From contig CM082582.2 of NCBI GenBank assembly GCA_040954595.2, positions 8,576,425 to 8,640,424 of the forward strand: DNA of 64,000 bases, in the 5' to 3' direction. This document shows positions 2,279 to 52,842 of the stretch, in pieces. Source of the DNA: Balanoglossus misakiensis. Taxonomy: Eukaryota; Animalia; Hemichordata. A model generated the notes under the pieces. The model saw nothing but the letters and a program-made list of their open reading frames with translations. It ran no database searches and was not told the origin of the DNA. Position 1 is the stretch's first letter. Each line of letters opens with the position of its first letter. The translations under genes were made by a program, and so were the position numbers.

Positions 2279-10623
<8,345 letters not shown>

Positions 10624-11424
10624 AAAGTGACCAGACCATGTGCCAATGTCAGATGGTTTCCTTAATCCGAGCCAATTTGATTCAATGCAATAAATTATTA
10701 CAGAGCGGCACTTTATAGATCCTGTATAAATTTTGATATTTTATGAAAATGTACATTGAGGAAGTAAATTATCATTTGGTATCCCAGCATTAATATAATC
10801 ATTGGTGACTTAAAAATAAAAACGCCATTTTGCTGACAATCTGTAATTTAATGATAATTAGAACATCTCATGATTTTTGTAATTATAATGGGGTTTTTAT
10901 TTTCTAAGGGGAAAAAAGATTCATAAAAATAAATTACGGTTTTAAAATTCATCATTGAATGTTATCAATACGCAAATTACTCTGGTACAGATCAGGTTTT
11001 GAATCTAGGTTGTGTATTTTGAATGTTATTTTATGTATTTGATCTTGGCATAGTACTTCATCATTCATCTAAGAAACTTTGGCAATGTTTGATTTCCTGC
11101 GAAGCTATTTATTTCCCTATGTGTCTCATCAGACCTGCATTCATATATCAGTCAGTATTAGTCTTGTTGTTCTTATGCTAAAAATGAGAGCGAAATTTGT
11201 GTAAGTTATCTTGTCCCAGTAATGCCTTTCTCCCAAGGGATTACTGAGTGATGTGTTTGGGCTGACACTTTGAAATTAGTCCCCGTACAAGCTGCGATAG
11301 TGTAGATATTGTCATCAGCAGTATTTCAAAAACGAGATGCATCTTCAAAACTTCATTTAGGGTACACTAATTGAAGTCCACATTGTCACTTGTCACTCTC
11401 CGCGCAGAGATTAAAGCTAAACTA

Positions 11425-11465: not shown

Positions 11466-12537
11466 AAGGTTACAACTGTAAAATGACTGCAGACTTGTGC
11501 GTGGCAGCCATCTTGTCACTGCCAATTGTTGGCCAGGCAAAAACTCATGTGCTTAGTGCCTGTAATTTGTTCCTTGTCACTTCACAGAAGTGTAGGAGTG
11601 CATGATTTTAACATGCCTGTTTTGTTCCCTCACTCAACTGAAATAAATGTCTTACACTTTTCTTGCCTTTTGGTTTAATATGGACCCGTCCTATGCTATG
11701 GTGGATCATCATGCTAGCATCTTTCGTGCCCGTCATAACACTCTCATTAGCTTTGGTCACAATACTGCAATAAATCAAACTTAAATTTTTATGTTGCCAA
11801 TGATGATGTATTGGAAATACCGTGCTGTATATTGTCGTATTATAAAAGTGCACACAACGCGACAGGCCAATCCGCATGGGAAATTAAGATGCTTCGCCTT
11901 TCTCTGAATGGTTTCGGTGTCTTGTTAATTGGTGCATATTGGTGAGCATTCAACGTCAATCGAGTTCCAGGCGTTCTCCGGCTCAATTGGAACTTACAGC
12001 TCGGTTCTGCGGTTGGCGTGAAAGTTACCAGAAACCCGGGCCAGCAAGTCATATGTTGGTATTGACTACTGTCCTGGCATTTGGTATCGATGCATTCACG
12101 AGACCACCCCTTGTTTTGCCTCTTTTCAGCAAGCCCTCTCCCATCGTCACAGACACATCCCAAGACAAGCTTATACGAACACAAGAGACGAATGACTCAA
12201 ATTGCATACACGACCATGCGTGTAGATAATCAAAGGAAGAAAATGAACTTAATAGACAATTTATTTCCAATACAAGCCTAGCATCAATGAATTATATAAA
12301 TCGATGAATTTTTCATCAGACGAGACAGGCTTATGTTCTTATCATTTATTTATACACGATTCGAGAAATACTAGCGAAACCTTTCTTGGGTAATTGGCGG
12401 ATGACGAGTCCGACAGCAACATGTATTGAACACGTCCCATATTTGTCACTCATAGATTAGTTGAAACCTTTCTCGCGAGAAGACACTTCTTTAATTTTTT
12501 TGTACTTTTTGATGAGGATCCTTCCCCATCGGTTGCA

Positions 12538-15500
12538 ATGGAAGACGAAACTTCCATTGGGTTAGACCGAGCGCAGGGGCGGTTAGACCGAGCAGGCGTC
12601 ACCCGAGTCGCACCAACGCTGGCGCAGGCGACAGCAAGCGCAGGCGACGGATGCACCAGGCAAAAATCGACGCACAAGAAACTCGCCGAACACTTCATCG
12701 CCAGCACCTCGGCGCACGGACTGCCGAAAATCTTCGAAAAGCGGAACGGTGTCTTGACTCTCTTTTGGACGCTGATCTTCTTGGCGGCAATCGGTGTATC
12801 GACGTGGCAGATTTACGAATTGATTCAGCAGTTCTTGGGGAGAGATGTCAACGTCAGGGTAAGACATTTTACAAAATTTCACAGCTAAATATACTTTGAG
12901 CATATATATACTTTGCATTGGATATTTCCAAGGCCCTCTCTGAGAGACACACACGTTCGACATTAACGAAGTTCACTCTTGTACATTTGAACTTCTCCGT
13001 ATAGGTTGAGGTGAAAACGGTCCCAAGTCTCACCTTCCCGTCCGTGTCCGTCTGCAATACCAACGCACTGAGAAAATCGGCAATAGAAAAGTCGAAATAT
13101 CGTCGGCTGCTCGCAGTGGATACCGAAGTTGTCAGGCCGTATTACGGTATAGCATCGTCCCACTTTCCCGTCCATTTTTAGTAAAGTTAAGCCTTCTTTT
13201 AGTAAAGTTTATAGTTGAAGGCTAATGAAGACATACCACACATTACCAATTACAGGTGTTAACTTAGTGATTGGCGACCATTTTGGATTTCAAATTTGAG
13301 ACAATTGTGCTGTCTCATTCAAAATTTTGGACATCGGTGACGGGTAAATTTTTATTCCCAATTTTAAGACGAAATAATCTAGAGTTGCCTTGAGAAATGT
13401 ATGAGAAAGGGTTAGAGGTTTCGAGGCGCAATGATCTAACAGGGTCATGTGTGTCATATGATTCTGTCTCAGCATCCCAATGTCTGGAGGGCGATTTCCG
13501 TTGCAACAACACTGGTTGTATAAAGAGTTACCTGAAGTGTGACGGGTATGATAACTGCAGAGACAGAAGCGATGAAGTTGGTTGCCAATATGGTAAGTCG
13601 TGGTTTCTACTCTGGGGTGGTCGGCTGTTCCACAAATTATTGTTAGTTGCCTGACTAACACAAATATACTTATTTGGGGAAATGGTATGTTTCCATGCAA
13701 CTTCGGAAGCCTGTTCAGTGAAAGTAGAAATGAGGCAGCGGGTGTTACAGTATTTCAGTTTGTGGTGATGTTGTTCTTCTTGTCCAATAAAAGGTAAATG
13801 CAGCAGAACTCAATTCAAATGTACAACTGGCAGTGACATGGGTGTGTGTATCGACCGAAAACGGAAATGCGATCGAATTTTAGACTGTTATGGTGGCGAA
13901 GATGAAGATAAGTGCGGTATGTCGTTTCGCGATTGTTCCTAATTTTCTCGCAAAATTACACCCTCCGCGGTAGATGGTGTATGTGCCAGATGCTCACGTC
14001 CATACCAACGCAGATGGTGAAGGTATGAGCGAGTAATATGACAGAATTACTCCATGACCTCTGCGCACGATCCTGCTTTATTCATTATCTCAAAGCTCAA
14101 GTATTTTTGTGATTCTAAAGTCACATTTATGTTAATGTCATATCAGATTGCAAAGACAAAAAGGAGTTCAGCTGTGAGACAAGTGGGCGATGCATTCCAA
14201 ACGACAAGCTCTGCAATGGCGTCGAAGACTGTCCAGACGGTAGTGACGAAAGCAGCTGTGCGTAGGGTTTTTCTCTACTCGAGTGATGATTTTGTGTACA
14301 GATTTTGCTTCCTATTCCATTTTATTGCGTCAGAGTATTTTTGAGTATTTGTTAACGTTTTTGTTTATCTTTTTTTTAAATCAAGGAATACGTTAAACCT
14401 CTGACCTCGTTGTATGTAATGGAGGGGTCGGGGTATTCTCACGTCGCTTCATATCCATTCGTGTCCACAGGTACTGGTTCGGGGACATTCTGTACGGACC
14501 AGTCCTTCAAATGCGATAACAACAGGAAGTGCATAAACCCGTCTTATCAGTGTGATGGGGAGTACGATTGCAGTGACAAGACTGATGAAGAAGGATGCGA
14601 CAATCAGCCTGACGGTCAGACACATCACTTTGACTATATGTTTAATTTGTTTGTTCGTTTATTCCTTTGTTTGTTTGTTCGTGTGTTTCTTTAAAGTACA
14701 TGTACCTGTCCTACCTACGTAAACACCTCTTTGTATGCCTCCGCCCGTTTGTTGCTAATCCAACCACGGACCAAAAGCATATTCACCCAGCTACCCATTG
14801 TAAATTCTATTATTATGTGAAGTCGAGAAAATGTAACTTTTGCCATTTTCCGTCACAGTTCCAAAGGAATGTGCAGATTGGGAGTATCAATGCGATGCAA
14901 AGAAATGCATACCATTACGCTATAAATGTGATGGCGAAGAAGACTGTGTGACTGGTTCGGATGAACGTATCTGTTTCGACGACCCTCGGGATTTATGGAC
15001 AGGTAACAAATTGCGTTACGATTAGAGCTATGCTCTGGAAATTTATATTAATACAAATGAGCAATTTCTAAGCCGTGTGTTCTCAAAGTATCTGAAACTC
15101 CACTCTGTGTAAGGCACGATAAATTTGTTAGTCAGATATGAAGGAAATGATTTTTTATTTCCAAATTATGTTTAACCCAGTGATGTGCGCTGACCAGAAA
15201 TTTAATTGTGATATTTTCCGGTGCATCCCAAACTCACAAATCTGTGATGGCGAGGCCCAGTGTTCCGACCAAAGCGACGAAAGTCCGAGCATTTGCGATG
15301 TTCACGGTATGTCTTATTCCTGCTTACCATTCAACTAGGTTTCACGTGGTCGTTTATGAATTTTTACTCGTCTTCATGCATGCATGTTACTGTTGGTGTC
15401 TGTAGTTTCCCGTCTATTGGGGACCTAACCAGCTTCATTTACGACAGACTGCTTTGGCTTTTTAAGGTCAACACCGATACATCACATGTATTGAAAGGGG

Positions 15501-18500
15501 AAGTGCATGGTCCTATGACAATACTCTCTTTGCATTGTTCGATGCAGACCCAACACTGTTTCAGTGCGGCAGCGGCGAGTTCTACCCTTTATCGTACAAA
15601 TGTGATGGGGAATACGACTGTGCTGATGGGTTTGATGAAGACGAAACTGAATGTGAAGGTATGGAAACCAGTTTTGGGGGGATGTCTGTTCAGACTTAAC
15701 ACGCGACATATAGAGACAAGTTTCACTCATGACACGGAAAGTACGAAAAAGAGCCCTTGCAATGACAATTTTCGTCGATAGTTAATGATGGCAAGGGCAT
15801 TTCTCATTTGTAATGGGTGATTTATAAATAGATGCTCAGGTCATTTCATTTGGTTCCAGGTCTGTTGTTCACATGTGTCAGCGATTACGTGAAAATCAAA
15901 ATGGATTACAAATGCAACAGTTTCCTTGACTGTACGGATGGATCTGACGAAGCTGATTGCGACGAGGTGACAGATACTACGGACACGCCACCAGAATGTA
16001 CGTCAGGCACCAATCTGATTAAAATCAGATGTAGGGTACGGCGACTTGTGAGGCGACAGCATAAAAAACACAAGTCGCCGTTCCCTACATCTGATTTTAA
16101 TCAGATTGGTCAGGCACAAACTTACTTTGCGTATGAGTGCTCTTTTGACTTAAAAGTGATCAGTAGACTTTTGTGTGCTTGCCCACAGTCTTTCGATGCG
16201 AAGGGAGTGGGGCTCTAATCGACCGCAGCCAACACTGCAACAAAGTTGTTGACTGCGACGACGCCAGCGATGAAACAAACTGTCAGCGAGGTAAGTGCAT
16301 GGCTACAGCAGAAAGTGGCTTTCGTTATTCATTCTTCGATAAGGTTAAAAGTCCGAATGACGTAGTTGTGTCTAGTATGGGCTTACATGACCCCTGGGCC
16401 CACGACACTGACCATTCCCCAATGCATGCCTACCCCTGAAGTGCCTGGACCCCCAAAGCCAGTTATGGGGTGTCTTAAAGTCCCCAGTACAGACAACAGT
16501 ATTCTGTTACCCTCATTCGATGACACATGTCACATTGTTTAATTTCGACCAGGACGAGATGCCTCGCACAGACCAGAAATTGAAGCTCTAATGGACGAAT
16601 ACTCACACTTCGGTGATAAATATCACCTCTTTGCGGATTTTGTGGAATACTACTACGACGACCACATGTTCGGGAGGGTGGCGAGCGAGGACCCGCCAGA
16701 CTGGTACGGCTTCATAACCTACAGCAAGACCCCCGACTACAGCGACCTGGAAGATGTGCTCAAACTCACAAAGGACGAAGTTAGAGAACTCGGACATCAA
16801 ATGGAAGACTTTGTACTGAAGTGTGAGTTTGACGGAGAAAAATGCGATTTGGAGAGGTGAGGAAAGGAAATTCACCCCAATTTCTCATAAATAAATGATT
16901 TCTGATGGCATTAGTGGCATTTGAGTGTGACTTCTCCCTATTTTGACTTACAGCGACACGCAATTCCGCGTGTATCAAGACGAGAAGTATGGCAACTGTT
17001 TTCAGTTCAATTATTTTGATCCCGAAAGTGACGTTTCTGCGCAGCGCACGACAAAACCAGGAGCTAAATACGGTGAGTTTGTCATTATGAAATTTGGGGG
17101 TTGATTTACATACGGGGCTAGATTTTATCTTATGTAATAATCACCAACCATTCTTTCAACTGTAGGTCTTGAGTTGATCTTATTCACCGAGCAAAACGAA
17201 TACATAAGTGTGTATGGTCGACAATCTGGCGCGCGTGTCGTCATCAAATCACCCGGGATACCGACCATCCCATCCGTTGAAGGAATAACCGTGGTTCCTG
17301 GCATGATCTCTTCCATTGGAATCAAAGAGGTAAAGCAACATCGATGGAATTTTGTCACTCATTTGGTATGATAACTCCGACATCTGAAGAATGTGTATTA
17401 AAATGAACGCCTACTATATCTTCCCTTCTTTACAGAAAAGAAACAAGCGAATGCCTTACCCCTTTGGGAACTGCAGAACTGATGTGCAATACAATTCGGT
17501 GTTTGGAGGGAAATACTCGAAAATCGTAAGATATTGTCGTTCATTTGAAAGTTCACGAAACGTGCATGCTATCTCTTGAATGTGTAAACTCTTCGTGAAA
17601 ACACGCGAATAAGAATATAATTCTCTTAAATGCTACAAGAAGGGAAAAGAAAACTTAAATATCCACACTACAGCAGGACTGCCCAGGGGTCGCAAAAGTT
17701 GCAACACGCAAGAGATCATTCCCGCCATCCGGTTCGTATTTCAGGCGTGCGAAGAAGACTGCGTCCAGAAGAGAATGCTGGCACACTGCGGCTGCGTGGA
17801 CACCGTGATGATGAATGAAACCCGATGTACGCTCTTGAACAGGACACAAGGTAGGACAATCATGTAGGATGTGTCTCTTTAAAGCTGTAACATGTATTGA
17901 CCGGGCCAAAGCTGTAGGCCCCGTGAAACCCATCCGCCCATCCTCACAGAAGGGCACAACGAAAATCCAGACACCAGAAGAGACAGTCCCAGACGGACGC
18001 AGACGTGATACATATATGTGTTTCTGTATTTCAGATGTATGTAAAAAGTTGATGTATTACTTACTGGGCAAGAACGAGCTTGGGTGTCAGTGCCCTCAAG
18101 TCTGCGAGTAAGTTAAAAGTCAGAGAAATTTAAAAATAAATATGTATGTTGGAATATTAGAGTGAAATTTTTCGCTGCTTTTGGATAAAATGTCACAAGA
18201 CTATGCACGCTTACACTCAATAGAAACTATATGAATCCTGGGGTACGTTATAACACGCATTTCCACCTATAGTTAATACATGACGGTGCAGACATCAATT
18301 TTCTTCCAGGGAAAGTTGGTATGAAACTACAGTATCCCAATCGCTGTGGCCGTCTGATACATACCTTGTAAGTTATTCCTTAGTTTGATTGACAAAGAAT
18401 GAGCTCCAGCAAAAAAAGCCACGCGTTTGCATAAATTTACATATTGTCCACCATTGCCTTATTCTTAGAAGGCGCGGATCGTATGTATGAAATATAAAGA

Positions 18501-19302
18501 GGACGACTTTACCCACATGATTGATTGGCAATGGTTTAGTAATACAAATGTACTACAGACACACATGCCGTCGTGTTTTTTTTAACATGGTGTGTCTTCT
18601 ACTTGATGTAGACTCCTATCTGCGATGCCTTACATTCGTATCTTTCAAAAAATATTTTGCAGAAACACTTACTGAAGGAGATTCACTTCATCAATAACAA
18701 GACCCGTGACATAAGTGACTTCACATCTGCCAGGTGAGAACCCTGCAATGCGGTCGCTTTGTTTAGTCCATTTGCAACGCATTCACTGTCGCACATTCAC
18801 CTGCAAGATGGTGCCCCATCAACGTCGGTCTCGATAATTAGAATAAACTTGGTATTTGGGCGGCAACCATGGAACGACCGAAAAATGCATGCGTACCTTA
18901 TGATAAATAACCCTGCGCAAAAATTGTTTCGTACAGCAAAAATCTGGTGCGACTTGAGGTGTTTTTCAGCGAACTTAACTACGAGCTGATTGAGGAAATA
19001 CCGGCGATTACAGTAAGTCTGGAAATTTCAATATATGTTATTATGTCCAAGCTTCTCTGAAAGCTGAATTTCAACCAAATGGTATATTATGTGAAACAAC
19101 TTGTCGCAAGAGATGTTCTTAATGTACAATGATCTTGTTTCATTGCGTTGTATAGGTGAAAAACCTTCTGAGTGATATCGGCGGGACGCTTGGCCTGTAC
19201 TGTGGGTTTTCCTTCATAACAGTCGTCGAATTCCTGCAGTTTTTCTGCGATTTGCTGGTCCTGACCTTCGCGAGGGAACGCCGGCAACGAAGAAACAACT
19301 GA
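12538..19302 (+). CDS. DEG/ENaC (amiloride-sensitive Na+ channel family) subunit with nine LDLa repeats in the ectodomain, paralogue A, about 929 aa
   Basis: 21 GT-AG exons total 2790 nt in frame. 12538-12858: TSAHG motif and TM1. 13005-13146: [10 protein letters not shown]. LDLa exons: 13473-13592, 13794-13916, 14147-14257, 14471-14614, 14859-15002, 15181-15306, 15548-15658, 15860-15997, 16189-16290. Then 16553-16856 ([16 protein letters not shown]), 16954-17072 (YGNCFQFN), 17166-17329, 17436-17525, 17745-17850 and 18035-18107 (Cys-rich thumb), 18310-18367 (SLWPS), 18663-18733, 18937-19012, and 19156-19302 (TM2 [16 protein letters not shown]). Confidence 0.93.
16002..16117. mobile_element. 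98-bp palindromic MITE with 9-bp target-site duplication, in an intron of channel A
   Basis: Direct repeat GTCAGGCAC at 16002-16010 and 16109-16117. The element 16011-16108 has 40-bp arms (CAATCTGATTAAAATCAGATGTAGGGTACGGCGACTTGTG and its reverse complement with one mismatch). Confidence 0.8.
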
Positions 19303-20512
19303 ACCGAACCACCACGTGACACGCGCTCAGCTCCGCCACCCATCATGCAGTTCGAACCATCCTTCAACACGTGACATTCAATTGCAGCGAATAGACAACC
19401 AGAGTCAGTGATACGTCATCAGTTCCAAGGATTTCGCTCTCGCCTAATTGGTGATAATCGCGAATGAAACAGGTTTTAATTTATTATCTGCTGGCACTTG
19501 CAGAAATTACATTGATTAATTAGAAATGCACAACAACAACATCTAATATGACAGATCCAAGGATTGAAATTGTCAATGTCACCTTCGTGTGACAGGTCAT
19601 CATTGAGACGTGACTTTATATTCTTCAATTTAAGCAATAAGATATACTAGTAGCTATTTGAGTATTATTAAGTTATTTATAATTCATTGAGCAAAATAAG
19701 ATTGGTAAAAATTGAAAATAATTATTCAACTTTCTAAAGCATTTGTAATTGCATGCGTTAGAGTGTCTTGTACGACCGATAAATATCTCAAGGTTTTAGA
19801 CGAGATTGGCGACTGTTACATTCGAATTTATTATAAATTTTCTACTTGTATGTGTCTGTTCCATGTTTGATAACTAATGTTACTGTAAAATCATTAAAAT
19901 AAGTGTGAAAAAGTACAGTGGCTGGTGATTCTCGTTGATTATTTGACGTAGATATTTCTATCCTATGGACGCAATTTCCATCCACAGGGAAAATTGACCG
20001 TGGACGGTAGAGTAATTAAGATGATCAGCATGCATAATTATCATAATTGTAGTAATTAAATGGCCATCTCTCATGGAACGCTTGAAGCTTTTATGACTTC
20101 GAGCAAAAATTCCACATCTCCCGGGTGGCATGGTAACTGCCATGGATGAAAAGGCACTTCACGCATGGGTTCAAGTAATCAACGATATATGGCTGGATTT
20201 GTCCTTCTTGACAAGATCACACGAACCGAAGCAATTATAATTAGATACCGCAGAATAACAACATGTTATTATGTTGAACAGTTCTTTAAGGTAGTATGCT
20301 CCTTGAAAGCCAAGGTAATACATTTTTTTCATGTTTTACTCAAACTCAAAACAACTGCAAAGAAATCTAAAGGTAAAAAGGGGTATCGAGTTTTCCAACG
20401 ATGGCACTAACAGTGTACTTTTCCACGGGTGGTGAAAGTTTAAATATTTACCTTTGAGGGCCGCTTAGAGAGTTGCGGGGTTCTACCACACCCACCTGAC
20501 TTTGGTTTACAG

Positions 20513-20526
20513 GTTGCCTTGGTAAC
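20513..20526. promoter_or_regulatory. RFX X-box upstream of channel B
   Basis: GTTGCCTTGGTAAC matches GTNRCC(N0-3)RGYAAC exactly. It lies about 250 bp before a putative 5'UTR donor (AGG/GTAAGA near 20775) and 420 bp before the ATG. Confidence 0.55.
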
Positions 20527-20933
20527 GATTATTGAATGTTATCATTTGTCATTGTGGGTGTTGCCATGTCCACACATCTCATTAATCAACCAGCAGTCAT
20601 AATTGAAAATTGGTCTTCGAACAACAGTCGTTATTTGAGTAACTTACTACGTGACTGGTAACGTTGACTTTGTCGCCTTTAACAAGAGCTGCCTCGGCCG
20701 AAAGTAACGCGCCTTTATGGACAGAAGAACAGCGGTGCGTTTGAGAAGAGATTACATTTTGGTCTGAAGTTTAGGGTAAGAAATATACAACTATTAAGCT
20801 CGTTATTTTGATTTATCACAGTGAGGTATGAAACAGAACAGAATTCCTGGTCCACATGTCTTTTTGCAAATACGAGACCAGACCTGGACGCAAAATATCA
20901 ACGCTTTTGCAATTGATTCTCAATATCTAGCTT

Positions 20934-23900
20934 ATGGAAGGATACGGCAAGCAGAACGTTACATACGACGGTACAACGTTGATGGAGTTCGAAGATGGAG
21001 AAACGAGCTTTAGCCGCGTCGGCGTTTCGAGTAACCAGGAGAACAAACCAGGCGAGGGTCCCAGTGCCAAGCAAGCGAAGTCCCGAGAAATGAAGACCCA
21101 CAAGCAACTCGTCGACGACTTCATCGGCAGCACCACGGCGCACGGATTGCCGAGGGTCTTCGAGAAGCGCAACTGGTTCCTGACCCTCTTCTGGACGCTG
21201 GTTTTCTTCACCGCCATGGGGGTGTCCACGTGGCAGGGCTACAGGCTGATCAAGCAGTTTTTGGCGAGGGATGTTAACATCCGGGTAAGTTAGACCAGCC
21301 GGTCTGGTCAAATATTATGCGTTCCGCAACTTTGGCGCAATTTGATTTCAGGTTTTGGACATTCTCGAGTTTGAAGATGGGCACTTGCGTGGCGTATGGC
21401 CAGGTCGTCAGACGTTAGACCGTACGCCAACAACCCCTTTTGGGGATAACCCTGATCTTCAACCCTTTACCTCAGACGGATGTTCGTTTTCCGAATAAAG
21501 ATTCGAATGTTCTCTGTCAGATTGAAGTGGTGACGGCGAGCAGTCTGACTTTTCCGTCGGTGACCATCTGCAACACGAACAAACTGCGCATGTCGGCCAT
21601 CAAGAAGTCACCGCACCGGCAACTCGCTGCTGTCGACACAGAAATCGTCAGACCATACTACGGTAAGGGTCTGCGACTAGACTTTGCACGTCAGTCCTCT
21701 GGGCTTATATCAAGGGGTATTTTGATACAAAGTGAATCAGTATAAATAATCTTACAAACCCCACCAACATGTGTTGGTGGCCTCTTCGATATATCGGAAA
21801 TTGTCTAAAGTGGCCCACCCTATAACCTTTCTCAAAACACAATAATTAACCCTTGTGCAAATTTTGTGCGTAAATCGCACTGTCTTGAACTCAGAAAATT
21901 ATTTGTAGTAAAATTGATTGCCACATTCATTCCATCGCATTTGTCACGGACTGCCGATTGCTGAATTAGAATTTAAAAATTCACGAGTTTTTGACACCAT
22001 TGTTCTCGAAGACCGTGACCAGTAATTTGATAATATTACATTGTCAGCATCCAAATGTCTGGAAGGCGATTTCCGTTGCAACAACACTGGTTGTATAAAG
22101 AGTTACCTGAAGTGTGACGGGTATGATAACTGCAGAGACAGAAGCGATGAAGTTGGTTGCCAATACGGTACGTAAGTCGTCGTAAGCTCATCCCATTTGT
22201 GGCACTATTGCATTGAGATAATATATGATTAAGTTTTAAAAAAAAATTAAATAAATCGTTGGCAGGTGACTGTAACACGGACAAATTCAAATGTACCACT
22301 GGCAGTAACATGGGCGTTTGTATAGACATGATCTACACGTGCGATCGACATCTTGACTGCTACGGTGGCGAGGACGAAGACGATTGTGGTGAGTTGACGT
22401 CTGTCAGCTGATTATTAGAATGCGTGTCCATAAGTAGCTGAAATAATTGTAGCCTTGGTGGGCTGGCTGGTTGGTTGGCCGGATGGACCGTCAGCGCGAT
22501 CCAGCCTCCCAACCGGCCAACCAAGGCTACAATTATTGCAGCTAGTCCATAAGGACCTTATTACGTAGTTTGCATCGTTTCAGTTGAAAACTGGGTTTAG
22601 GCTTATTGTGTCATTGCTTAGCCGGCCGCCATAGACGTGCTACCGTAATTCATTTCGCCAACATAATAATGGAGATACCTACACGACAGCGAAAGCTAGC
22701 CCAGTGTACTTACAGAGGACTATAACTGTTAACTGTTCCGACCAATTTCAGAATGCAAGGCAAAAACGGAGTTTTCCTGCTTGAAGAGTGGTCGGTGTAT
22801 TTCCACCCTACGTTTATGCGACGGCCGTGCAGACTGCCCTGATCGGAGCGACGAGGTTAATTGTAAGCGGAAACAGTTCTTTTTACATAATGACGGTGAT
22901 AAAGAGATTTATAAATTACCAAATAACGCCAATGCCAGCGAACATTCCGTCACAGCGCTGAAGAATGGCGAGCAAACTTTCTGTTTTTGCGAAACGCATT
23001 TTTCGGCCACATATGCACCTGGAAAACGTCAGCCTAGCAGGAATTAATTTGGTCCGATTTACTTGTCTCCATGCAGGTACCGAGTCTGGGATATTCTGCG
23101 GGAATGGTTACTTCGAGTGCGACGGCGGCAGAACGTGTATCCCGCCGTATTGGAAGTGTGACGCCTACGCCGACTGCAACGACCAGTCAGACGAAGAGGA
23201 CTGCAGCACTTCTTCGCCCGGTAAGCAGCTTGGCGACCGATTTTAACACTAGTGAAGTTTTAAGGGCATCAGAACGCGGGAGAGTACTACTGAAACATAT
23301 ACTGCTAGGCGGTCGTGCGATAATTGCTTTCACTCAGTCTGCTTCATATTGGATTGTTACGATAGGGGGCTACCCAGATGCAGTGTGAGGTTGCCACACC
23401 GCATAGCTTTATATATTAAACGCTGTTCTAAAATTGCATTAATCCTTTTTGGTGGAGGAATGGCGGAAAGGAAAGCTGAACCCAATGCTAATAGTAAACA
23501 CTATGTTCCTTTTTCAATGTTCTTATAAGGAGGAAGTCCAGTATACTGCTCAAGCGATGAATTCCAATGTGATGCTATGAACTGCGTACCGGCAAGTTGG
23601 GAATGTGATGACTATAAAGATTGTATGAGCGGCACTGATGAAATGTACTGCAATGGCGGAAGTAAGTGTAAACTCTGTATGTCTGTCTGTACGTGCATGT
23701 AAAAGGCGTGAATAAACGTGTAGAAATTACGTTCCCGCGACGCTCAGTCATCGTTTTGATTTCGGAACGGTGGATACTGTGGCTTAACTCTCACCAGGAT
23801 CGGACGTCCAAACAGCTCTCCGGGTTTACCTGTTTTGTTTTTTCTCTCAAATAGTTTGTGACACGGGTGAATTTGACTGCGATGACGGTGACTGCTACCA

Positions 23901-26900
23901 CAATTCGATGCTGTGTGATGGCGTAGCCCAATGCAACGACGAAACTGACGAAGATACTGGGACGTGCGGGGACGAGTCCAGCGGCTCAGGTGCGTCATAA
24001 TGTTATCATCACGGTTACCGTGCCCTATGCATAACAATTTTGAAACCTGCCCTTTGATCTTAATTTCTACTCGGTACTTAGGTTCCGGTTCCGGTTCAGG
24101 CTCATTCACCTGCGACGACGGGGAGACGATTCCGGAGTCTTACATTTGTGATGGCTATGATGATTGCGAAGATCTTTCCGACGAAGACGATGCAGCCTGT
24201 GCAGGTATGGGAATATAGTACTACTTTACGGTTGAAATCTATACTTACGAACATTTTGTATGGTTGTAACATGTGGTTCTGTTTGATGGTAGGTTTGTCT
24301 TAACCGCCATCTTGGAAACAAGGTGCGTTGTGGGATAGAATCCCAGATGGCGGTTAAGACAAACCTGGCCTATAGGGGGCCATACAATGTAGTGTACTAT
24401 CTTGTTTTCTTCTGCAGGTAGATTTGCTTGCGATAATGGTACGAGGTATCTATCAAATGACACCATCTGTGATTCTGTCTACGATTGTGATGATGGATCT
24501 GATGAATTCAACTGTGCCAATTTCACCGGAAACAGTTCCTTAGCAGGTCATTAATATTTACATTTTTTGAATATAACCACTATAGTGACGTATGAAGTTG
24601 CCAAATAATTGTCTTGTTGTTTCGTTACGTAATAACGGAGTGACGTGCGAAAAAGTGAAACGTCGAAACATTGACACGAGCACGTACGGTATTCTAATGT
24701 TTGGTATGATTTTACACGACGGTTATACCATTGCAAAATTTCAAGTATAACCCTGACGCGCCTTGGTGTGGGGTTGGGATGAGGGACAGGGCCGGGATTT
24801 TGCAATGTCCACTTGCAAAGGCTACATGTCCTATACACTTACAAGTTGCTGTGTTACACTTTTTTTCCCCACAGAGACATTTACATGCGTCGAGGATTCC
24901 ACGTTGATTGACATCACCCAACGCTGTAATAAAGTTGTGGATTGCGTGAACGCAAGCGATGAGTTGCACTGCCCGAGCGGTGAGGAGATTTTTCATCGAT
25001 TAACCATATTAGGAGTTGCTCGATAGCATAAAAATTAATATCTCATTAATATGCATGCGATCTGGCCAATGACGCCGTTTATCACTGGGACCAATTTTGT
25101 ATGTGTCCTTTGGGAGGTCGCGAAATGTATTAACATTAATTTTCCTGAATGCACTTGTTTCGACTTTCTTAGGACGGAATGCCAGCTACACGCCGGACCC
25201 CTACGAGCTGTTAGAGCAGTACTCACAATATTCCCACGACCCCGCACTCTACCTGGAGTTTGTTAACAGTTACTATGACGACCACATGTTCGGGAGAGTT
25301 TCCAGCGAGGACCCGCCGGACTGGTACGGTTTTATAGCCTACACCAAAACGCCCGACTACAGCGACCTGGAACGGGTGCTCAAACTACGCAAGGAAGAAG
25401 TCGGGGTTCTGGGTCACCAGATCGACGACTTCATACTGGATTGCAGCTTCGACGGAGCCAAGTGTGATTTGAAAAGGTGAACTTGTTGTTGGCATTAATA
25501 TTATACATGTACTTTATACAATAACCCCCAAATCATTGACATGTTTCCAAGTCGAGAAAGTTGATGTCTTCGTCCAAAATCCTGATTATTGGCAGTATTG
25601 CGCGGATTAAATCTTTTTCTCCTTTCTCTTCCTCTAACAGAGATTTTCGCACTTATCAGGACGAAGTCTATGGTAACTGTTTCCAGTTCAACTATGAAGA
25701 CCCAACAAACGATACTAAACGCCTCGAGACGACAAAAGCGGGTGTCAGCTACGGTGAGTATGGTGTCGATTTTTTAAATATATTTTCCCACCTTTCTTTG
25801 GGGTTTGATCACACGTCCCTGAATGTTCTCTTGACCATCCTTATGCTTATGATTCTGTACTCGGAAATATTTTTCGACCTTCAGGTCTGAAAATGACACT
25901 CAACACTGAACAGGACGAATACATCAGCGTTTACGGGCGGCGTTCTGGAGCACGAGTGCTTGTCAAAACCCCCGGCATACCATCTATACCATCTGCCGAA
26001 GGAATCACGATCTTGCCCGGTGTCGCTTCCTCGATTGGTCTCAGGGAGGTAGGAATTTTATAATACCTCTGCATGAAACCGTGAAAAAACTTTCTCAAAG
26101 CAAACAAGTAACTTTTCTACCACATTTTCACGTTATTGAAACTGTTTTTAAAACTATTTTTTCACAGAAAAGAATCAAGAGACAACCCATGCCTTACGGG
26201 GACTGCATGACGGAATCTAACTTCCCATCGGATTTTGGCCACAGATATTCAAAACAAGTAAGATGAGATTTGATTTTCGATTCAAAGCAAATGCATGTCC
26301 CAAACCCCCTACTCCACGTGTTGTGTATTCTACAGCGGTTGTGATAATACGCGTATTGGCCTCCGGGGTCACAATTTCTGCAACATGAGGTGTAACTTTT
26401 CCATTCGGTAACATCACGTTTGAATTATATTTGCAGGCGTGTGAAGAAACTTGTGTCCAGACAAAAATGGAACAGCACTGTGGATGTGTTGACAGCATGT
26501 TAGTCGACCGGCAACAGTGTATGCTGCTCAACAGAACGCAAGGTATATAAATCACTGCAATGGTATACGTTGAGTTGAAACCACACAAAGAGAGGCGGTC
26601 GTCCCATCTGCGACTGCGCGTATATACCTTGTATAACACACAGCACATAAAGCATGGCAAACAGAATGCTGTCACCTTTTACCACGTGTGGCGCTTCTTG
26701 GTACAACATCTTGACATTTAAAAAATGGGTGGCTTCTGTTCTGACTGGTACTTTTATCTTTTGGTAGACGTTTGCAAACAATTGATGCATTACCTCTTAA
26801 ACAAAGATAAACTCGGATGCGCCTGCAAGAAATCCTGCGAGTAAGTACATTTGAATACAGTTCACCTGTGACAGTTGCTTTGGAATAGATGACTTATATG

Positions 26901-28118
26901 GTCACTTTGCAGATAGAGACAGCCTTCTCTCAATGGGGAAACGTAAGACAAACATAGAAAAGCTAATTCTAACGTGAAATTTGTCTCATTTTTTGCTTTT
27001 TACTGTTCAAAATTTCCTGTATCAACACAGTTCTATTTTTTAATCTTCAGGGAAAGCTGGTATGAAATCAATATTTCTCAATCGCTTTGGCCGTCCAAGA
27101 CCTACTTGGTAAGTCGATTGTGTGATCGCATACAGAACCGAATCGAGATTAAGCATGGTTAAACCATGCCTAATAATCTCAACTTTGCAGACCGTTGTAG
27201 TTGTCCAGTTTAGTGATGTCACTGACAATGATGTATCTTTCTATTTATATAGAAACATTTGTTGAAGCAGATTCATTCCAAAAATGACAAGATGCGGAAG
27301 ATCAATGATGCCACTTCTGTCAGGTGAGTTTGATTGATTTCCCGAGCGGAAATCGATGAAAAGGGAAAGAGAAAGAGAGAGAGAGTGAAAAATAGAAAGA
27401 CATCGGACGGAATCTAGGAGCAGTAAGCTTATTATCAATGTAACACGCAGAAGCACAACAACATCTAAATTTTGAAGTACGTGACGTCAGAATAACAATT
27501 GACCAGTTGTAAGGGAGTAAGCAGAGGAAATCTATACGTTTGATACAAACCACGGAAAAAAGTGAACTTCCGCAAGGAAATAGAATAAAGAATGCTAGTA
27601 AATGTCTACAAATGTGCGGCTGAACTCAGTCGCCTTTTTACGATACCACTGTTGGTCTTCTGTTTTGTTGTGGACAGTGAGAATTTGATCCGACTTGAAG
27701 TGTTCTTCGAGGAACTGAACTACGAGAGCATCGGCGAAATACCCGCCATAACGGTAAGTTCTTGAGATCTTCGACGGATCTGTGAATTCAGTTGAATATA
27801 TTCCAAATTTTGACTAGAAATCTGTAGTTACAATAGTTCAATTGAGTATTACATGGGTTGATGTTTCGAACTTGGGCCGCGCACCCCCTGTATGAGGAGT
27901 ACCACCCCCTGGGGTTCACGGCAGATGAGATAATTACGTTGGTGTACATGTACGTCTTTTTTCAGGAGGAGAGTCTTCTGAGCGATATTGGCGGGACTCT
28001 CGGTCTCTACTGCGGGTTTTCCTTCATCACCATGGTTGAATTCCTGCAGTTCTTTACGGATTTGGTAGTTTTGACTTACTTCAAATACATCCACCGACGA
28101 ATTAATCCAAAGAAGTAA
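20934..28118 (+). CDS. DEG/ENaC subunit with nine LDLa repeats, paralogue B, about 940 aa
   Basis: Same 21-exon structure, 2823 nt in frame. 20934-21284: TTAHG and TM1. 21521-21662: FPSVTICN. LDLa exons: 22048-22167, 22266-22388, 22752-22862, 23077-23220, 23530-23661, 23855-23989, 24082-24204, 24418-24546, 24875-24979. Then 25173-25476, 25641-25753, 25885-26048, 26168-26257, 26437-26542, 26768-26840, 27051-27108, 27253-27323, 27678-27753, and 27966-28118 ([16 protein letters not shown]). AATAAA at 28667. Confidence 0.93.
22426..22553. mobile_element. 110-bp MITE with TAG...CTA termini and 9-bp target-site duplication, in an intron of channel B
   Basis: Direct repeat GTCCATAAG at 22426-22434 and 22545-22553. 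Terminal inverted repeats of 25 bp: TAGCTGAAATAATTGTAGCCTTGGT / ACCAAGGCTACAATTATTGCAGCTA, one mismatch. Confidence 0.8.
24291..24366. repeat. Intronic inverted repeat with 22-bp perfect arms, MITE-like
   Basis: AGGTTTGTCTTAACCGCCATCT ... AGATGGCGGTTAAGACAAACCT. No target-site duplication recognised. Confidence 0.6.
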
Positions 28119-28917
28119 GACTGACTTCAGCACATGATCTCTCCCCGTCACTCAAAGCGAGAAGTCGTCCAGTGCGGACAAGATTTTTGCGCAGCGTCGT
28201 GAAGCTCAGATCTGGGGCTGCAGGACGAGAACAAAGGTCGTCCGTAACCAACAGACACCAACTATAGTCTGGCAACGTGCACGCGTTCTCGATATGTGTT
28301 CTAAGATTGAACCAAACTGTTGTAAACTGTCATGTGTACGATGCATGATGAGCCTATGTTAGGTTCTCACATAGAACGACTACCTTAATTGCCACCGATT
28401 TTATAAGTCATATTATTCTCCCCATATCTGTGCGTCGATCTATCTGTGTCTGTCTGTCTTCCCGGGTTTATCCCAGTGTGGTTAAATTTTTGAATGCTAT
28501 AAATTTAACTTTTTATTATACTACGCAGCTTCATGATTAATTGCACGTTAAAGGATTTTTTACCTGACGATCAAACCACCACCACGCAACGACGACGTTG
28601 ACGACGACGATTTAATTCATGTTTTCAACGAATGTACATGTAGATCTCTTAGCTATATGTTAGCTTAATAAATCCATTCTATCGTAACACCCAAATATCT
28701 TCATGTGCTATAGCTTTTTCAGATATCATGCTTTGTGTCGGTCGTTCTGGATGGGGTTTTATTTGCCATTAGGGCGCATGCTCGACCGAAAGTAGGCCTC
28801 TAGCCTAATTTACGAAACTCCGTCTGCAAACATAGCGGTAACTGGCATATACACACTTGCGAACTTGGTTGTCGAGCGCACGCCCTTGCAGTCTTGGGAA
28901 ATCGAAAAACGACCGCC

Positions 28918-33242: not shown

Positions 33243-35913
33243 CTAATCAGTCACTGCAGTTTCTGCTTTTGTTTGGCTATCTCTCTTCGGGTCAACATCG
33301 CTGAATTCGCTGCCGGAGTTCGGTGGACTGTCACCTTCTTCTGCAAATGTGTCGTCGCCCAATTCCGTCCTGTCTTCCTCGACATCCACAGGAGCTGTGC
33401 CATCATCCTCTGCTGTAGCTGTGAAACCAGAACACACAGAGAGAACTTTCAAGCCATGGAGATTTCAGTGATACACTGAGAGGTGTTTGCAAATCAGACG
33501 CCATGTTGGTCAGGGGAATATTAAAGACCCATGTTTCTTGACGTGGGCACTCCTATAGAAATAAACAATAGTCTTTCTGTCTGTTGGGAAACAAAAGAAA
33601 AACAAAAGACTGACTGTGCATTGACATGCCCCTTTAAACTCTTTTCCACACACCTTGATCCTTGTCAGCCGATGTTGCCTGGTCGCTTGCACCCTCCGGT
33701 CCCAAGAACGCGTCTAATTCGTCCTTGTCCATGACATCATCGAGGTCGACGTCTTCCACCGATGCTACAGATGATGTCTGAGTTCTATAAATAGGACCTG
33801 GGTGTGGAGAGAAATTGTACTGTGATGGAAGGTATATGCAAGCACTGCATGTACAGTGAATAGAGTACTATGTCTGCTATCTGCTGATATTGGACAATGG
33901 TTAGACCTTTTCTCAAGGGGAACTGGGAACACAGAAGATTTGAGAGTGAATACTCACGGTTCATTTCGCCGCTTTCCTTGTAATGTTGCATGTCCTCGTT
34001 GAAGACGTCCTGAAAGGTCTTCTGTCTCTCTTTCATCTTCACTTGTTCTGTCCTTTCCACTTCTTTGACTTTCTGGTTGTACTCGGCCAGCAGTTGGGCT
34101 TGGAGAGCATTTACACCACATTTCATATCATTGCTTCCAAAAGCGGACAACTACACTGAACCCTGATAACGTCTACAGTCAAACCTATCTATAGTGGCCA
34201 GTCAAGGGAATAAACTGGTCCCAATTTAATACTGCATGAAGGATATTGAAGAAATTATAAACTTACCTCGAAGTATTTCTTCTTCTTGCCTGAATATTGA
34301 AAGGAAACAACACTTCAACTTTAATAAGCCTTCACCACCGTACACTAGTTATTTTCAACGCTATAAAATCAAAAGATGCAACATATCAATTTGTAACTCA
34401 CCTTTTGATTTCTCTGTATGCCAGCATTTGATTGCTGTGCCCCAGTTTGTTGTTTTCAAACTCTTCTTCATCGCAGAGTTCCTCTAGATATATCAACATT
34501 CCTTCTATTTCTTCAAAGGTTCCTTCCAGCGAACCTGTTTGCAGGAAAGAATAAACAATCACAATGTCATGACAATAATACAGTTGGATAGAATACCCAC
34601 ACCTTGTTCTCTTTGCAGGGTCTACGGGTAGTATCTATTAATTTTATTTGTCCGTATTTTGGCAGAGAATAGATGTTCTGTGTCTTACCTATGACGACTG
34701 TCACTGCCTGAATGTCCTCTGCTAACTTTGGCAGCGCTGCCAACTGAGAATGGAACTGTAGTATCGCGTCCGTCTGCTTCTCACATTTCGTGACCAGCTT
34801 TTGGACTTCATGGTCCGCATCCTGGAAGAGCGAAGTGTTGGCATGGTTACGTATTTGTCTTACAGCATAGCTGCAAATGAAGTGACTAAAATTGTCAAAG
34901 ATATCGAATGAATAATTACTTACAATGGCCTTCTTTGCACTTTCGTCAATGCTCTGATGCAGTGCAATCCACTGCTGTTGAAATCTATATGAGAGAGAGA
35001 GAGGGGGGGGGGGGGGGGGGGAGAGAGAAGGGAGAAAGAAAGGGTTATGTCAATGTCATTTATTCTACAAACATGAAATTCAGTGGAGGACCTTGAGATG
35101 TAGCAACTGATGTTCTGAATATCTAAGTAAGCTATTCATAATCAAGTGAAACAAAAACACACAAATAAAATAATAAAAGGTACCAATCCCATCTCTTCAA
35201 AAACACATTAAAGATATACATACTTGTTCAACAGTTCGGCACCTGCATCTAACGGTGGCTTCACAACAAATTCTGGACTGTATGGTGGGAAAAAAAGACA
35301 AAAAAGGAAATTTACGTTAGTTGCAAACTGTGCTCTTTCAGTTAACTTTCTTTGGTATAAATATTTTCCATTTTTGAATTTTAAATGCAAATCTCTACTT
35401 CCTCATGTGTTATATATAGCAGAGCACTGTTAGTGAGTTAAAGGGCCTCAAATGGCACCCTCTAGTACATCATTTAGTAGCAAAGTGTACAAAATATTGA
35501 CAATATTTTTTTACCTGCTGGGTAAGTCTGATTTGCGACCTGTTTTGCCGACTTCCTTTGCTTTGGCTGTCAGTGTCTTCAAGCTGTGATAAAGGAAAAT
35601 TACGACAGTGCCAACGACAGTTAGGAAGCTGACCTTAGACAGTAATAACAAGTGCCCTTGGTCTATTCCCCTCCCAAGTTCTACGTGCGTGTTCGTGAAA
35701 GGTGGGGGTATATCTTCGCATCATTCCGTGAAAAAAGGTAAGTGTACAAGTGCGGGTATTCGGCCTTAACATACACAGCATCAAAACTGGTTAATTTTTT
35801 ATGGTACGTACATATAGTTCAGTTGATGTGATGGATAACGATGGAGTGGTCACTTACCCTTCCGAGAGATCATGTTGGACGTTATGAAGGCGTTCTCTCC
35901 AGTTATCAAACAT
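33243..35913 (-). CDS. DTNBP1: Dysbindin (BLOC-1 subunit 8)
   Basis: Start MFDNWRERLHNVQHDLSEG/LKTLTAKAKE (human MLETLRERLLSVQQDFTSGLKTLSDK). Later motifs AGAELLNK, KMKERQKTFQDVFNEDMQHY and DKDELDAFL. Acidic last exon 33419-33243. Confidence 0.9.
34990..35040. repeat. (GA)n / poly-G purine tract in a DTNBP1 intron
   Basis: GAGAGAGAGAGA, a G-run of about 19 nt, then further GA-rich sequence. Confidence 0.8.
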
Positions 35914-36432: not shown

Positions 36433-39400
36433 TTATTCGGCCACTGCTTGTGTTGCACTTGTTTCATGTAGTTTGTCTAGGATCTCAGAGTAGACAGTGT
36501 TCATCTACAAATAAAACATGAATGAAATACATTTGTATTGATGTCTCATATAGGTGAAGTTATTATCAGATAACCGGTGACTCAATAAGGATTGAGATGT
36601 ACACAGGGACACGAGATGAAAGGTCGCATTTCAAAAAACAGCTTGTTATAACCATCTGTTCAATACACAAATCTTTCTAGCATTCAGACACATATAACAC
36701 CCACCTGCTCTTCATAATTGGACTTCAGTGTTGTCAGATGTTGAAGTAGATTGATTGCAAAGCTACACCACTTTTCAGCTTCTGTATACTGGCATAAACT
36801 GGAAAAGTATAAATTGCAGATTTTTCAAACCTCGGAGCAAGACCGACATTTCCTTTTGATTTTAAGATCATGTTTGAATCACTCCGCATTGTGTATAACT
36901 TTTCAGACTTTCTGAGATATTATTCCAAAAAACTATAATGAGGATGGCATGAACAATAAGACCATGCATGACCATTGCGTGTACATGTACTTACCTGTAC
37001 TGGTGTATGCCACAGTTCCAAGCTTTGGTCATCAGCCACAAAATTTCCATCTCAGGATACTGCTCCTGAATAGGATCCAAACACACATACACACAGATGT
37101 TATATATAGTTTATATAGTTATAGCTTGGATGTACTACACTTGAAAACTGGAATGTAATCTCTGCATATTCCAGATATAAATTTAGCTCACCTTTGCTTT
37201 ATTTCCAATGATATCAACAACCTCACTATAATACTGCCAGGTTTCTTCATTGTTACTACTGCTGCCTTCCAAAGACAGTTGTATCAAACTATGGTAAGAT
37301 TTGCTGTCAATTAAAAAAAAAACTTATGTTAATTCGTACTTCAAAGTCACAATTATACAGGTGAAAGATAATTTTTGGAATCAAGCATTCTCAAGTACAT
37401 GTACAGGGAGGCAAAGGAAAAGATATAACAAGGGGTGTGCATTAATTACCTCAGCTTATTATAGTCAAGTGATTTCTTCTGCATAAACTTCTTGATGGCC
37501 ACTTTTAAGGCTCTCATACTGACTGCCTTGTGTTTGAAAGACGGTTCCATGGCGAGACCTAATAGCAGAAGACATGCAGAATTGTTACAGAAGGCATACT
37601 TTTGGACGAGGCGTAGAGACTTGAAAGAATTGGGAGATTAATAGTTATACCAACACTGGTGTAATTTGAACCACATACCTGCTAATGTCTCGAAAGTCTT
37701 TGGCTCTGCAAATGGTAACGACAATGCTTTATCTAAGAGTGTTGTCAGCTTATCGGTTCTTCCGAGTCTTGCGTAGGCTTCAAATTCATACAGAATCAGC
37801 AGAATCAAAGTTGTGTCTTGTTGGCCTCCTGAAAAGATATACAGCAATGACAGGTACAGCCTGGAGTTTGAATGGATCACAGTCAGTATTGGATAAAATT
37901 TGTCATGAGTCTATGTACATTGTAATTATTATGTCATACTGCTGAATAACACATACCAGACTTTGAGTCAGAAAAGTGTCCTCTCTCTTCAAGCTGTCCA
38001 CATATTTGTCTACATTCTTCAATATGGCTCAGTGCAAGATGAAAACTTCTGTCCTGGAGCATCAAAATACAATAATACTGGCATGTATATTGTTATAATC
38101 TGACCAAAGTTGCATACGGAATTCACAGCTATGACAAGATAATTTCCTAACTATACCAGTACCTTCTGCTTACAATAGACATTTTACAGTAAATTTTAAT
38201 TAGACACAAAATAATTAACAGAATAACATGATATTAAATGCCCCTACTTTTTCTTCTGTGTCATCTATGTCCTTTGCCATCTGCAAACACGAAGCAGCTG
38301 CCATCAGTCTGCAAGTCTTCTGTTTGAGAAGGTTTTCAGTGTCCACTGGGACAAGATTTGCAAACTGCAAGATAATTGATGAAATATCAATTTTCATACA
38401 AGGCAATATCTAAGTATCAGGAATGACTGTCATCCTTGATTGACACATACATGATTTGACTAAATGAGATACCAGGCTTAATCACTTCATTACATGGAAG
38501 CCTAAATTGGGCTATGGTATGCATGATTGTTTTCTAAACAATACATTTAACGGGGGTAGTATGTTTTGCACATTACATAAATTGTATCTTATTGAAAGTG
38601 CAGAGATAAACTTACTTTACAACAGTAGTTGAAAAATTCATGCATATTTCGACTTGAATCCACACTTTGAAGACCAAGGTTCCAAGCTGTCAAAATGGAG
38701 AATGATTTCATCAGCACTTGCCATTTTTGATGCATTTAGACAAGACAACCATGTGCAAGTTCGCATTGAGACAAAACAGTTGGATGCTGAACTCAACAAC
38801 CTGGATAAGAATCTATTCTTGCAGTATCTCGTTACCTATTTTCATAAACCACACCGACTCTTGCTGTATGCAATCTTCACTCATCACCCCCTCGTCCTTG
38901 ACAGTGTGAAGTTTCAAATAGGCTGCAAAGAGAATACAGATTTGGTTGTAACAAACTGATGAAATCTACAAGTCTCTGTAAAATATTAAATTGTACTGGC
39001 ATGGTATTCTTGCTTGCAGTCTTTTGATAAACACTCTTATGACTGTATTTTGAGGTAACGCTTGATAATGGAAACCTTACCCGTTTTGATGTCTAAAAGA
39101 ACACTGCTCTTCTCAGATCTGGAAATGATGCACAAACATGGCATAGTTGTTACTCCGATAATAAAAAAAAACTTGTAACTGTAAGTCTTGATTTTCAAAA
39201 GCAACAACATAAAGTACACTGGTGTAAATATTAGATATACAGCAGTATTTGTCCATCATGCAGTGTACAACTGGCTGCGTTTACCTGGAATTTTCCTGTG
39301 AATCCATGTGTGCCAGCTTCAGCCTAATCAAGCATCTAAGTGCTGTCAGTATCTGGGTGTCGTTGACTGAAAATTCCACGAGACCCTGCAAAGCTTCCAC

Positions 39401-52600: not shown

Positions 52601-52842
52601 AGCCTGTCCCTGAGGTATGTACTACCTTAGTATACAAACATGGGTAGCACTTGAGTAAAGGAAGAGCTAAAAATTAAAATTTCCACTTTTTTTCATTTTT
52701 CCCTCCACAGTGCTTTAAGTATCCCAACTTCTTCAGGGTGGTGTTGACCATCCCCCAGCATCGGATAGAAGACGCCTGCAACCGCATTGAGGAATTCTGC
52801 AAACAGCACTACATCACAGACAATGGGAAGTCCTCACATTAA
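49621..52842 (+). CDS. TAT: Tyrosine aminotransferase (PLP-dependent, class I)
   Basis: [79 protein letters not shown]-lysine motif [18 protein letters not shown]. Later PRGAMYMM and EQSVLCLPG. Ten coding exons; stop TAA at 52840-52842. Confidence 0.95.

Follow-up and report, generated by a model that had tools for sequence, protein, structure and literature searches.

A tandem pair of acorn-worm DEG/ENaC genes with nine predicted LDL-receptor class A modules in the finger domain

Two tandem genes in a 64,000-nucleotide stretch of Balanoglossus misakiensis DNA (assembly GCA_040954595.2, contig CM082582.2, positions 8,576,425 to 8,640,424, forward strand; hereafter the window) are predicted to encode DEG/ENaC channel subunits, A and B, each interrupted in the finger domain by nine LDL-receptor class A (LDLa) modules. 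Both models were built by hand on the plus strand from six-frame motif scans and inspection of splice sites. Each gene has 21 exons, with identical phases in A and B; all 40 introns are GT-AG and neither model contains an internal stop, which bears out an earlier sequence-only reading in which both genes spliced in frame, free of stops, through nine LDLa exons. The two proteins are 58% identical. Gene B was started at the first in-frame ATG, with further in-frame ATGs at 20982 and 21090. The features, in window positions, are as follows.

12538-19303, plus strand: gene A, DEG/ENaC subunit with nine LDLa modules, 929 amino acids, 21 exons, hand-built model
12538-12858, 13005-13146, plus strand: A exons 1-2, N-terminus, HG motif, first transmembrane segment (TM1), beta1-beta2 and first finger helix
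13473-13592, 13794-13916, 14147-14257, plus strand: A LDLa1-3, conserved base modules, from Pfam and module comparison
14471-14614, 14859-15002, 15181-15306, 15548-15658, 15860-15997, plus strand: A LDLa4-8, variable middle modules
16189-16290, plus strand: A LDLa9, last module, four Cys, without the pocket signature described below
16553-16856, 16954-17072, 17166-17329, 17436-17525, 17745-17850, 18035-18107, 18310-18367, 18663-18733, 18937-19012, 19156-19303, plus strand: A exons 12-21 (16553-19303), remaining finger, palm, beta-ball, thumb, knuckle and second transmembrane segment (TM2)
20934-28118, plus strand: gene B, 940 amino acids, 21 exons, orthologue of Ptychodera flava XP_070575721
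20934-21284, 21521-21662, plus strand: B exons 1-2
22048-22167, 22266-22388, 22752-22862, 23077-23220, 23530-23661, 23855-23989, 24082-24204, 24418-24546, 24875-24979, plus strand: B LDLa1-9
25173-25476, 25641-25753, 25885-26048, 26168-26257, 26437-26542, 26768-26840, 27051-27108, 27253-27323, 27678-27753, 27966-28118, plus strand: B exons 12-21

Exons 3-11 make up the insert, which spans residues 155-527 in A (373 amino acids) and 165-538 in B (374 amino acids), in agreement with the chimeric architecture, finger position and length of 373 residues described earlier. All of these exons are phase 1-1 in both genes, all 18 score above the Pfam cut-off for LDLa (PF00057), whose acidic DxSDE-type motif is present, and each insert holds 48 Cys. 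The earlier count of nine LDLa modules per gene therefore stands by profile match but needs qualification at the end of the array, since modules 7-9 have four Cys instead of the six found in modules 1-6. A tblastn search of the window with seven family proteins detected no additional family piece outside 12500-28200 or on the minus strand. Near-perfect inverted repeats with arms of 26-44 nt, resembling miniature inverted-repeat transposable elements, lie in introns of the arrays at 16009-16110, 22435-22544 and 24291-24366; the first starts 12 nt past the donor of A exon 10, a weak site, and could influence splicing. In A exon 1 a short tandem duplication at 12560-12600 repeats an LDRA motif in the cytosolic N-terminus.

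The remainder of each protein has the features of a DEG/ENaC subunit. Eight of ten flanking exons scanned matched the channel profile ASC (PF00858), five of them above cut-off, and exon 12 of A and B gave no Pfam match and only chance antibody matches in a PDB search. Both proteins keep the HG and FPxVxxCN motifs, the thumb cysteines, 14 ectodomain Cys outside the insert and the G-F-S filter motif of TM2, and their pore motifs are intact. The HG and FPxVTxCN motifs reported by the sequence-only reading were confirmed, and the transmembrane helices are visible in a structure model of an orthologue; a simple hydropathy cut-off missed TM1 of B. Neither A nor B has a GRIP domain with polybasic cleavage sites or a C-terminal PY motif. 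The orthologue, XP_070575721 of P. flava (P0002, 950 amino acids), carries nine LDLa modules and is 59-62% identical to A and B (A 59%, over 939 columns). Pfam found only ASC (264 bits) and LDLa in it, and none of the EGF or YWTD beta-propeller domains of the LDLR/LRP family.

The AlphaFold2 model of this orthologue, made from a 31-sequence alignment, has a mean pLDDT (per-residue confidence) of 68.8 and a pTM (predicted template-modelling score) of 0.48. The palm, beta-ball, thumb, finger and knuckle of the DEG/ENaC fold are present, and the LDLa array lies between helix 148-154 and the helices from 558 on. The model aligns at Z 28.6-29.4 to gamma and beta ENaC and Aplysia FaNaC, and at up to 28.0 to ASIC1; against gamma-ENaC the root-mean-square deviation is 4.0 A over 343 residues (Z 29.4), or 3.3-3.9 A in Foldseek. 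Since the Z scores for ENaC, FaNaC and ASIC are nearly equal, structure does not separate them, and phmmer ranges overlap as well (ENaC 123-157 bits, ASIC 143-157 bits). The best structural match in the ESM Atlas was a delta-ENaC cluster (TM score 0.71 by target), and feature searches of the Atlas, which covers clusters of at least 50, returned only ASC clusters (0.84). Gamma and beta ENaC are tied for best match to the predicted fold, but A and B differ from vertebrate ENaC in sequence (about 25% identity), in having no finger furin sites or PY motif, and in the LDLa array that replaces GRIP.

For affinity to ENaC, the predicted gene structure is probably more telling than the fold. Each gene has 12 non-LDLa coding exons, the same number as SCNN1 exons 2-13 (PMC8662647, section 5). 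Exons 13-20 of A and B measure 119/113, 164, 90, 106, 73, 58, 71 and 76 nt, and exons 5-12 of beaver SCNN1D measure 89, 164, 99, 118, 79, 58, 71 and 76 nt in supplement rows; four of the eight are identical in size and all eight share their frame, a comparison made with exons 11 and 12 fused. The phases after A/B exons 12, 16 and 17 (2, 1, 2) are those of SCNN1A introns 4, 8 and 9, placed after c.875, c.1360 and c.1439 in PMC10665068; the intron at the insert is phase 1 in A and B versus phase 0 for SCNN1A intron 3 (after c.684, same source). By this exon matching the LDLa array falls between the counterparts of SCNN1 exons 3 and 4. The plan may be specific to relatives of ENaC or older.

Three homologue searches returned acorn-worm proteins only, and ASC and LDLa occurred together in 25 of the 26 matches of one of them, the exception being annotated as partial. 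In a 29-row tree of the channel core, B is sister to XP_070575721 (support 99/96), and A, B, this orthologue and a P. flava fragment form a group (98/96). This grouping points to an enteropneust source probably close to Ptychodera, and the duplication that gave A and B would predate the split from that genus. Judged from these predicted proteins, the LDLa-channel fusion is old and P. flava has a nine-LDLa orthologue of B. Cassettes of acorn-worm relatives comprise 2-12 LDLa modules with or without kringle, PAN and F5/8C domains, and wider members additionally show CUB, TSP1, SRCR, HYR and ShK in Pfam. All of these added domains are extracellular interaction modules.

Individual modules were compared with those of A. 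The first module of relatives was closest to A-LDLa1 in 20 of 20 cases, the second to LDLa2 in 19 of 20 and the third to LDLa3 in 14 of 19. As a pocket signature of the kind seen in LDLR-ligand structures we used an aromatic residue two before Cys4 together with two acids; a literature search gave no paper defining an LDLa lysine pocket. The signature occurs in 27 of 46 middle modules compared, 11 of 64 base modules and 1 of 22 last modules. Together, module matches and signature distribution suggest a conserved stalk of base modules that carries a variable, putatively ligand-binding region.

To reach beyond acorn worms, the post-insert core of XP_070575721 was searched with HMMER against 1.84 billion representatives, giving 5815 matches. 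The best 150 were taken; 138 were new, of which 59, picked by length or LDLa motifs, were scanned with Pfam and 20 were named. LDLa is present in 18 of the named 20: nine proteins come from acorn worms, five from echinoderms (Patiria, Acanthaster, Anneissia), two from gastropods and one from an acoel, and there is one further protein. Among the best 150 of the 5815 matches are also a Branchiostoma channel with F5/8C and kringle and no LDLa, and others with Xlink, PAN or C-type lectin. A quick 155-row tree, made under LG+G4 with a midpoint root after 29 isoforms or fragments had been set aside and with 12 short rows removed, unites the ambulacrarian LDLa channels in one 60-row clade with an SH-aLRT (branch support) of 92, not starred, and an inner 38-row set at 96; neither tree contained a named vertebrate ENaC. 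The LDLa1 pattern directly follows the first finger helix in 29 of 34 database clade members with the beta2 motif. The other five comprise two that show the pattern by eye, two that begin with another LDLa, and P0095, which has PAN only. On this placement, A and B belong to an acorn-worm and echinoderm clade sharing base LDLa modules, and the predicted LDLa array represents one form of a cassette that is interchangeable across the whole channel clade.

The tree places two gastropod proteins outside the ambulacrarian clade, and a single origin of gastropod and ambulacrarian LDLa channels was rejected (approximately unbiased test, p 8e-73 for gastropods forced into the clade), a test less strict than it appears because the clade list was drawn from the same tree. 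Gastropods appear to have gained their finger LDLa independently, and LDLa was likely recruited repeatedly to the same finger site. P0153 and P0160 (gastropods), P0108 (acoel), P0142 and P0152, all outside the clade, have one or two finger LDLa modules, two of them with CUB as well. P0064 (Branchiostoma), P0070 and P0083 carry F5/8C and kringle in the finger, one with Xlink, without a Pfam LDLa, and branch within the group sister to the ambulacrarian LDLa clade. In P0059 and P0104, both predicted proteins, an fn3 domain lies a long way upstream of the channel part, and the two may be fused gene models.

The architecture has points of contact with other known systems. With LDLR, VLDLR and LRP the array shares a tandem arrangement of LDLa modules, encoded by phase 1-1 exons and bearing acidic Ca2+-cage motifs, but it would form a loop with both ends in the channel subunit, and three modules lack one disulfide. 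With the peptide-gated channels FaNaC, WaNaC and MGIC it shares the finger: PMC11026163 describes ligand gating through the finger, where bound ligand pulls the thumb and opens the FaNaC pore, and a finger corner that hosts peptide binding, protease sites and proposed matrix tethers. Their ligand pocket is built from finger helices, whereas the A/B finger carries the LDLa array; the model aligns to FaNaC at Z 25-29. By family analogy the insert sits in the subdomain that controls gating across DEG/ENaC channels. The MGIC preprint gave no support for LDLa domains in that channel, and neither its text nor that of the FaNaC family paper mentions LDL or lipoprotein.

From these observations we propose, with a probability of roughly one half, that A and B are receptor-channels: binding of an extracellular protein to the middle modules would move finger and thumb and gate the pore. 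A response to extracellular protein is likely because, in relatives, this finger site holds many other kinds of binding module. In this scheme the base modules and the last module would form a stalk fixed to the finger, and the middle modules would bind, in a Ca2+-dependent manner, to a protein, secreted or of the matrix, through a basic (Lys/Arg) surface on it. The load could then be relayed to the pore along the finger-thumb route known from FaNaC. A and B may assemble as homo- or heterotrimers with differing binding preferences.

Several observations weigh against this proposal. The pocket signature is kept by only three of nine modules in A (4, 5 and 7) and four of nine in B (2, 4, 5 and 7), and isoforms of relatives skip LDLa exons; to count all 27 LDLa modules of a trimer as ligand-binding would be an overstatement. 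In one P. flava gene of the F5/8C type, RefSeq isoforms omit LDLa3, LDLa1 and 2 or LDLa1-3; a Patiria isoform is without LDLa2 and P0008 carries just two modules; base modules are therefore not strictly required. The last module of relatives was closest to A-LDLa9 in just 8 of 20 cases, leaving its lineage less clear. Inter-module linkers are of low confidence in the model, as is 587-617, and a flexible string of modules may not transmit force. In the Saccoglossus LDLa and kringle paralogues P0007 and P0009 the HG motif has lost its His and the S of the TM2 filter is replaced by C; members of this type may be non-conducting or modulatory subunits that do not conduct alone. Finally, we found no functional or expression data for any family member.

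The modules might instead anchor the channel permanently to matrix or mucus, with force on the anchor as the gating stimulus. The channel would then contain within itself a connection that, for nematode MEC-4, is supplied by separate matrix proteins. A tether model has been proposed for MEC-4 and ENaC (PMC10148893), cassette types include matrix- and glycan-binding folds, and the orthologue model is close to gamma-ENaC in Foldseek; very different cassettes in paralogues of one genome, however, fit varied ligands at least equally well, and we consider a permanent tether unlikely. We rate as rather improbable that the modules have no part in gating and only localise, cluster or traffic a channel that either stays open constitutively or is gated by other means, or that they bring in a partner, for example a protease. 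Symmetric, skippable exons and a module number varying from 2 to 12 would fit such a role, as would weaker acceptors near the LDLa exons (2.9 bits versus 10.3 for channel exons, the latter inflated since channel exons were the training set, and -5.1 for random AG). Against it stand the location within the gating-control subdomain and the conservation of LDLa1, the most conserved exon of A (85% versus the orthologue) and near the top in B.

It is more doubtful still that the array is an autoinhibitory cap, holding the channel shut as GRIP does in ENaC until proteolysis or a drop in Ca2+ relieves it. The insert is strongly acidic (88 D+E versus 40 K+R in A), and its position between the counterparts of SCNN1 exons 3 and 4 corresponds to the region that encodes GRIP. 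Yet neither insert contains an R-x-x-R site, and release by furin is down-weighted because furin-type sites occur only in the palm region (725 in A; 731 and 734 in B) and are missing from 11 of 15 proteins checked.

Joining exon 2 directly to exon 12 stays in frame, giving 556 amino acids for A and 566 for B, and the window alone therefore cannot prove inclusion of exons 3-11; the same fusion in independent genomes supports it. If RefSeq isoforms rest on RNA reads, then channel transcripts do include the modules, and their use varies by alternative splicing. That the fusion is a prediction artefact, with LDLa exons skipped or part of a nested gene and mature channels of ordinary form, is very improbable despite the in-frame join and split P. 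flava annotations that include a 268-residue 'LDL receptor-like' fragment: at least six named genera of ambulacrarians share the fusion, the last Cys of LDLa3 is divided by an intron in both genes, that same fragment extends from LDLa modules into the channel finger, only eight open codons and no Met lie upstream of B exon 3, and none of six isoform pairs differing in the finger loses the whole cassette.

One exon of the array stands apart in its similarity between A and B.

13469-13598, plus strand: A copy of a likely gene-conversion tract at the LDLa1 exon; 97% identity with 22044-22173
22044-22173, plus strand: B copy of a likely gene-conversion tract at the LDLa1 exon; 97% identity with 13469-13598

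Exon 3 is identical between A and B at 117 of 120 nt, compared with 51-74% for other exons, and the flanking introns are unrelated. Synonymous differences number 2 at 39 sites in exon 3 versus 247 at 494 elsewhere (binomial p ~3e-9). Recent gene conversion confined to the LDLa1 exon is the likely explanation.

The channel pair is flanked by a coiled-coil gene at ~3600-10624 (plus strand) and an amino-acid permease of SLC7 type from 28921 onward (plus strand; PF13520). The former, without a Pfam match, resembles CEP89; CEP89 and SLC7A9 are neighbours in human, which would make this an old microsynteny with the channels inserted between. Further along lie a dysbindin-like gene at 33785-35049 (minus strand; PF04440), a putatively TEX11-like gene at ~37600-44630 (minus strand; five pieces scanned gave no Pfam match), and, at ~49550-53000 (plus strand; PF00155), a class I/II aminotransferase similar to tyrosine aminotransferase.

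The architecture is already in RefSeq and UniRef as uncharacterised or automatically named proteins and is thus not new to databases, as the sequence-only reading had suspected. The RefSeq members (from Ptychodera, Saccoglossus, Glandiceps, the starfish Patiria and Acanthaster, and the crinoid Anneissia) share with A and B the insertion site, base modules, finger motif and clade; they differ in module number and cassette type, and are automatic predictions without described function. We found no description of LDLa or kringle domains inside a DEG/ENaC in the open-access literature, subscription journals, figures and supplements lying outside the search. Term look-ups in the accessible parts of 10.1101/261990, PMC9822975, PMC9949801, PMC10507113 and PMC9234716 found "LDL" or "lipoprotein" nowhere; PMC8791634 mentions only uncharacterised ENaC-like proteins, and PMC10507113 gives orphan ambulacrarian channels only as uncharacterised clades.

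More tentatively, and with odds somewhat short of even, the family may be a class of ionotropic receptors, so far undescribed, that respond to extracellular proteins and glycans. In such a channel the finger of an ENaC-like pore, in the slot of vertebrate GRIP, would be a socket that accepts exchangeable cassettes (LDLa, kringle, PAN, F5/8C, CUB, TSP1, SRCR); exon shuffling and alternative splicing would have diversified them, and the design would have arisen more than once in animals. In the literature examined, DEG/ENaC channels are gated by protons, small peptides, proteases, force, bile acids and heat, and none has receptor domains built in as an array. With an antenna that is genetically encoded and exchangeable, it becomes testable through simple deletions and swaps whether a finger tether can gate a DEG/ENaC, and the same channels make testable what filled the GRIP slot before vertebrate ENaC. 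The A/B family also offers a handle on the many orphan channels of ambulacrarians.

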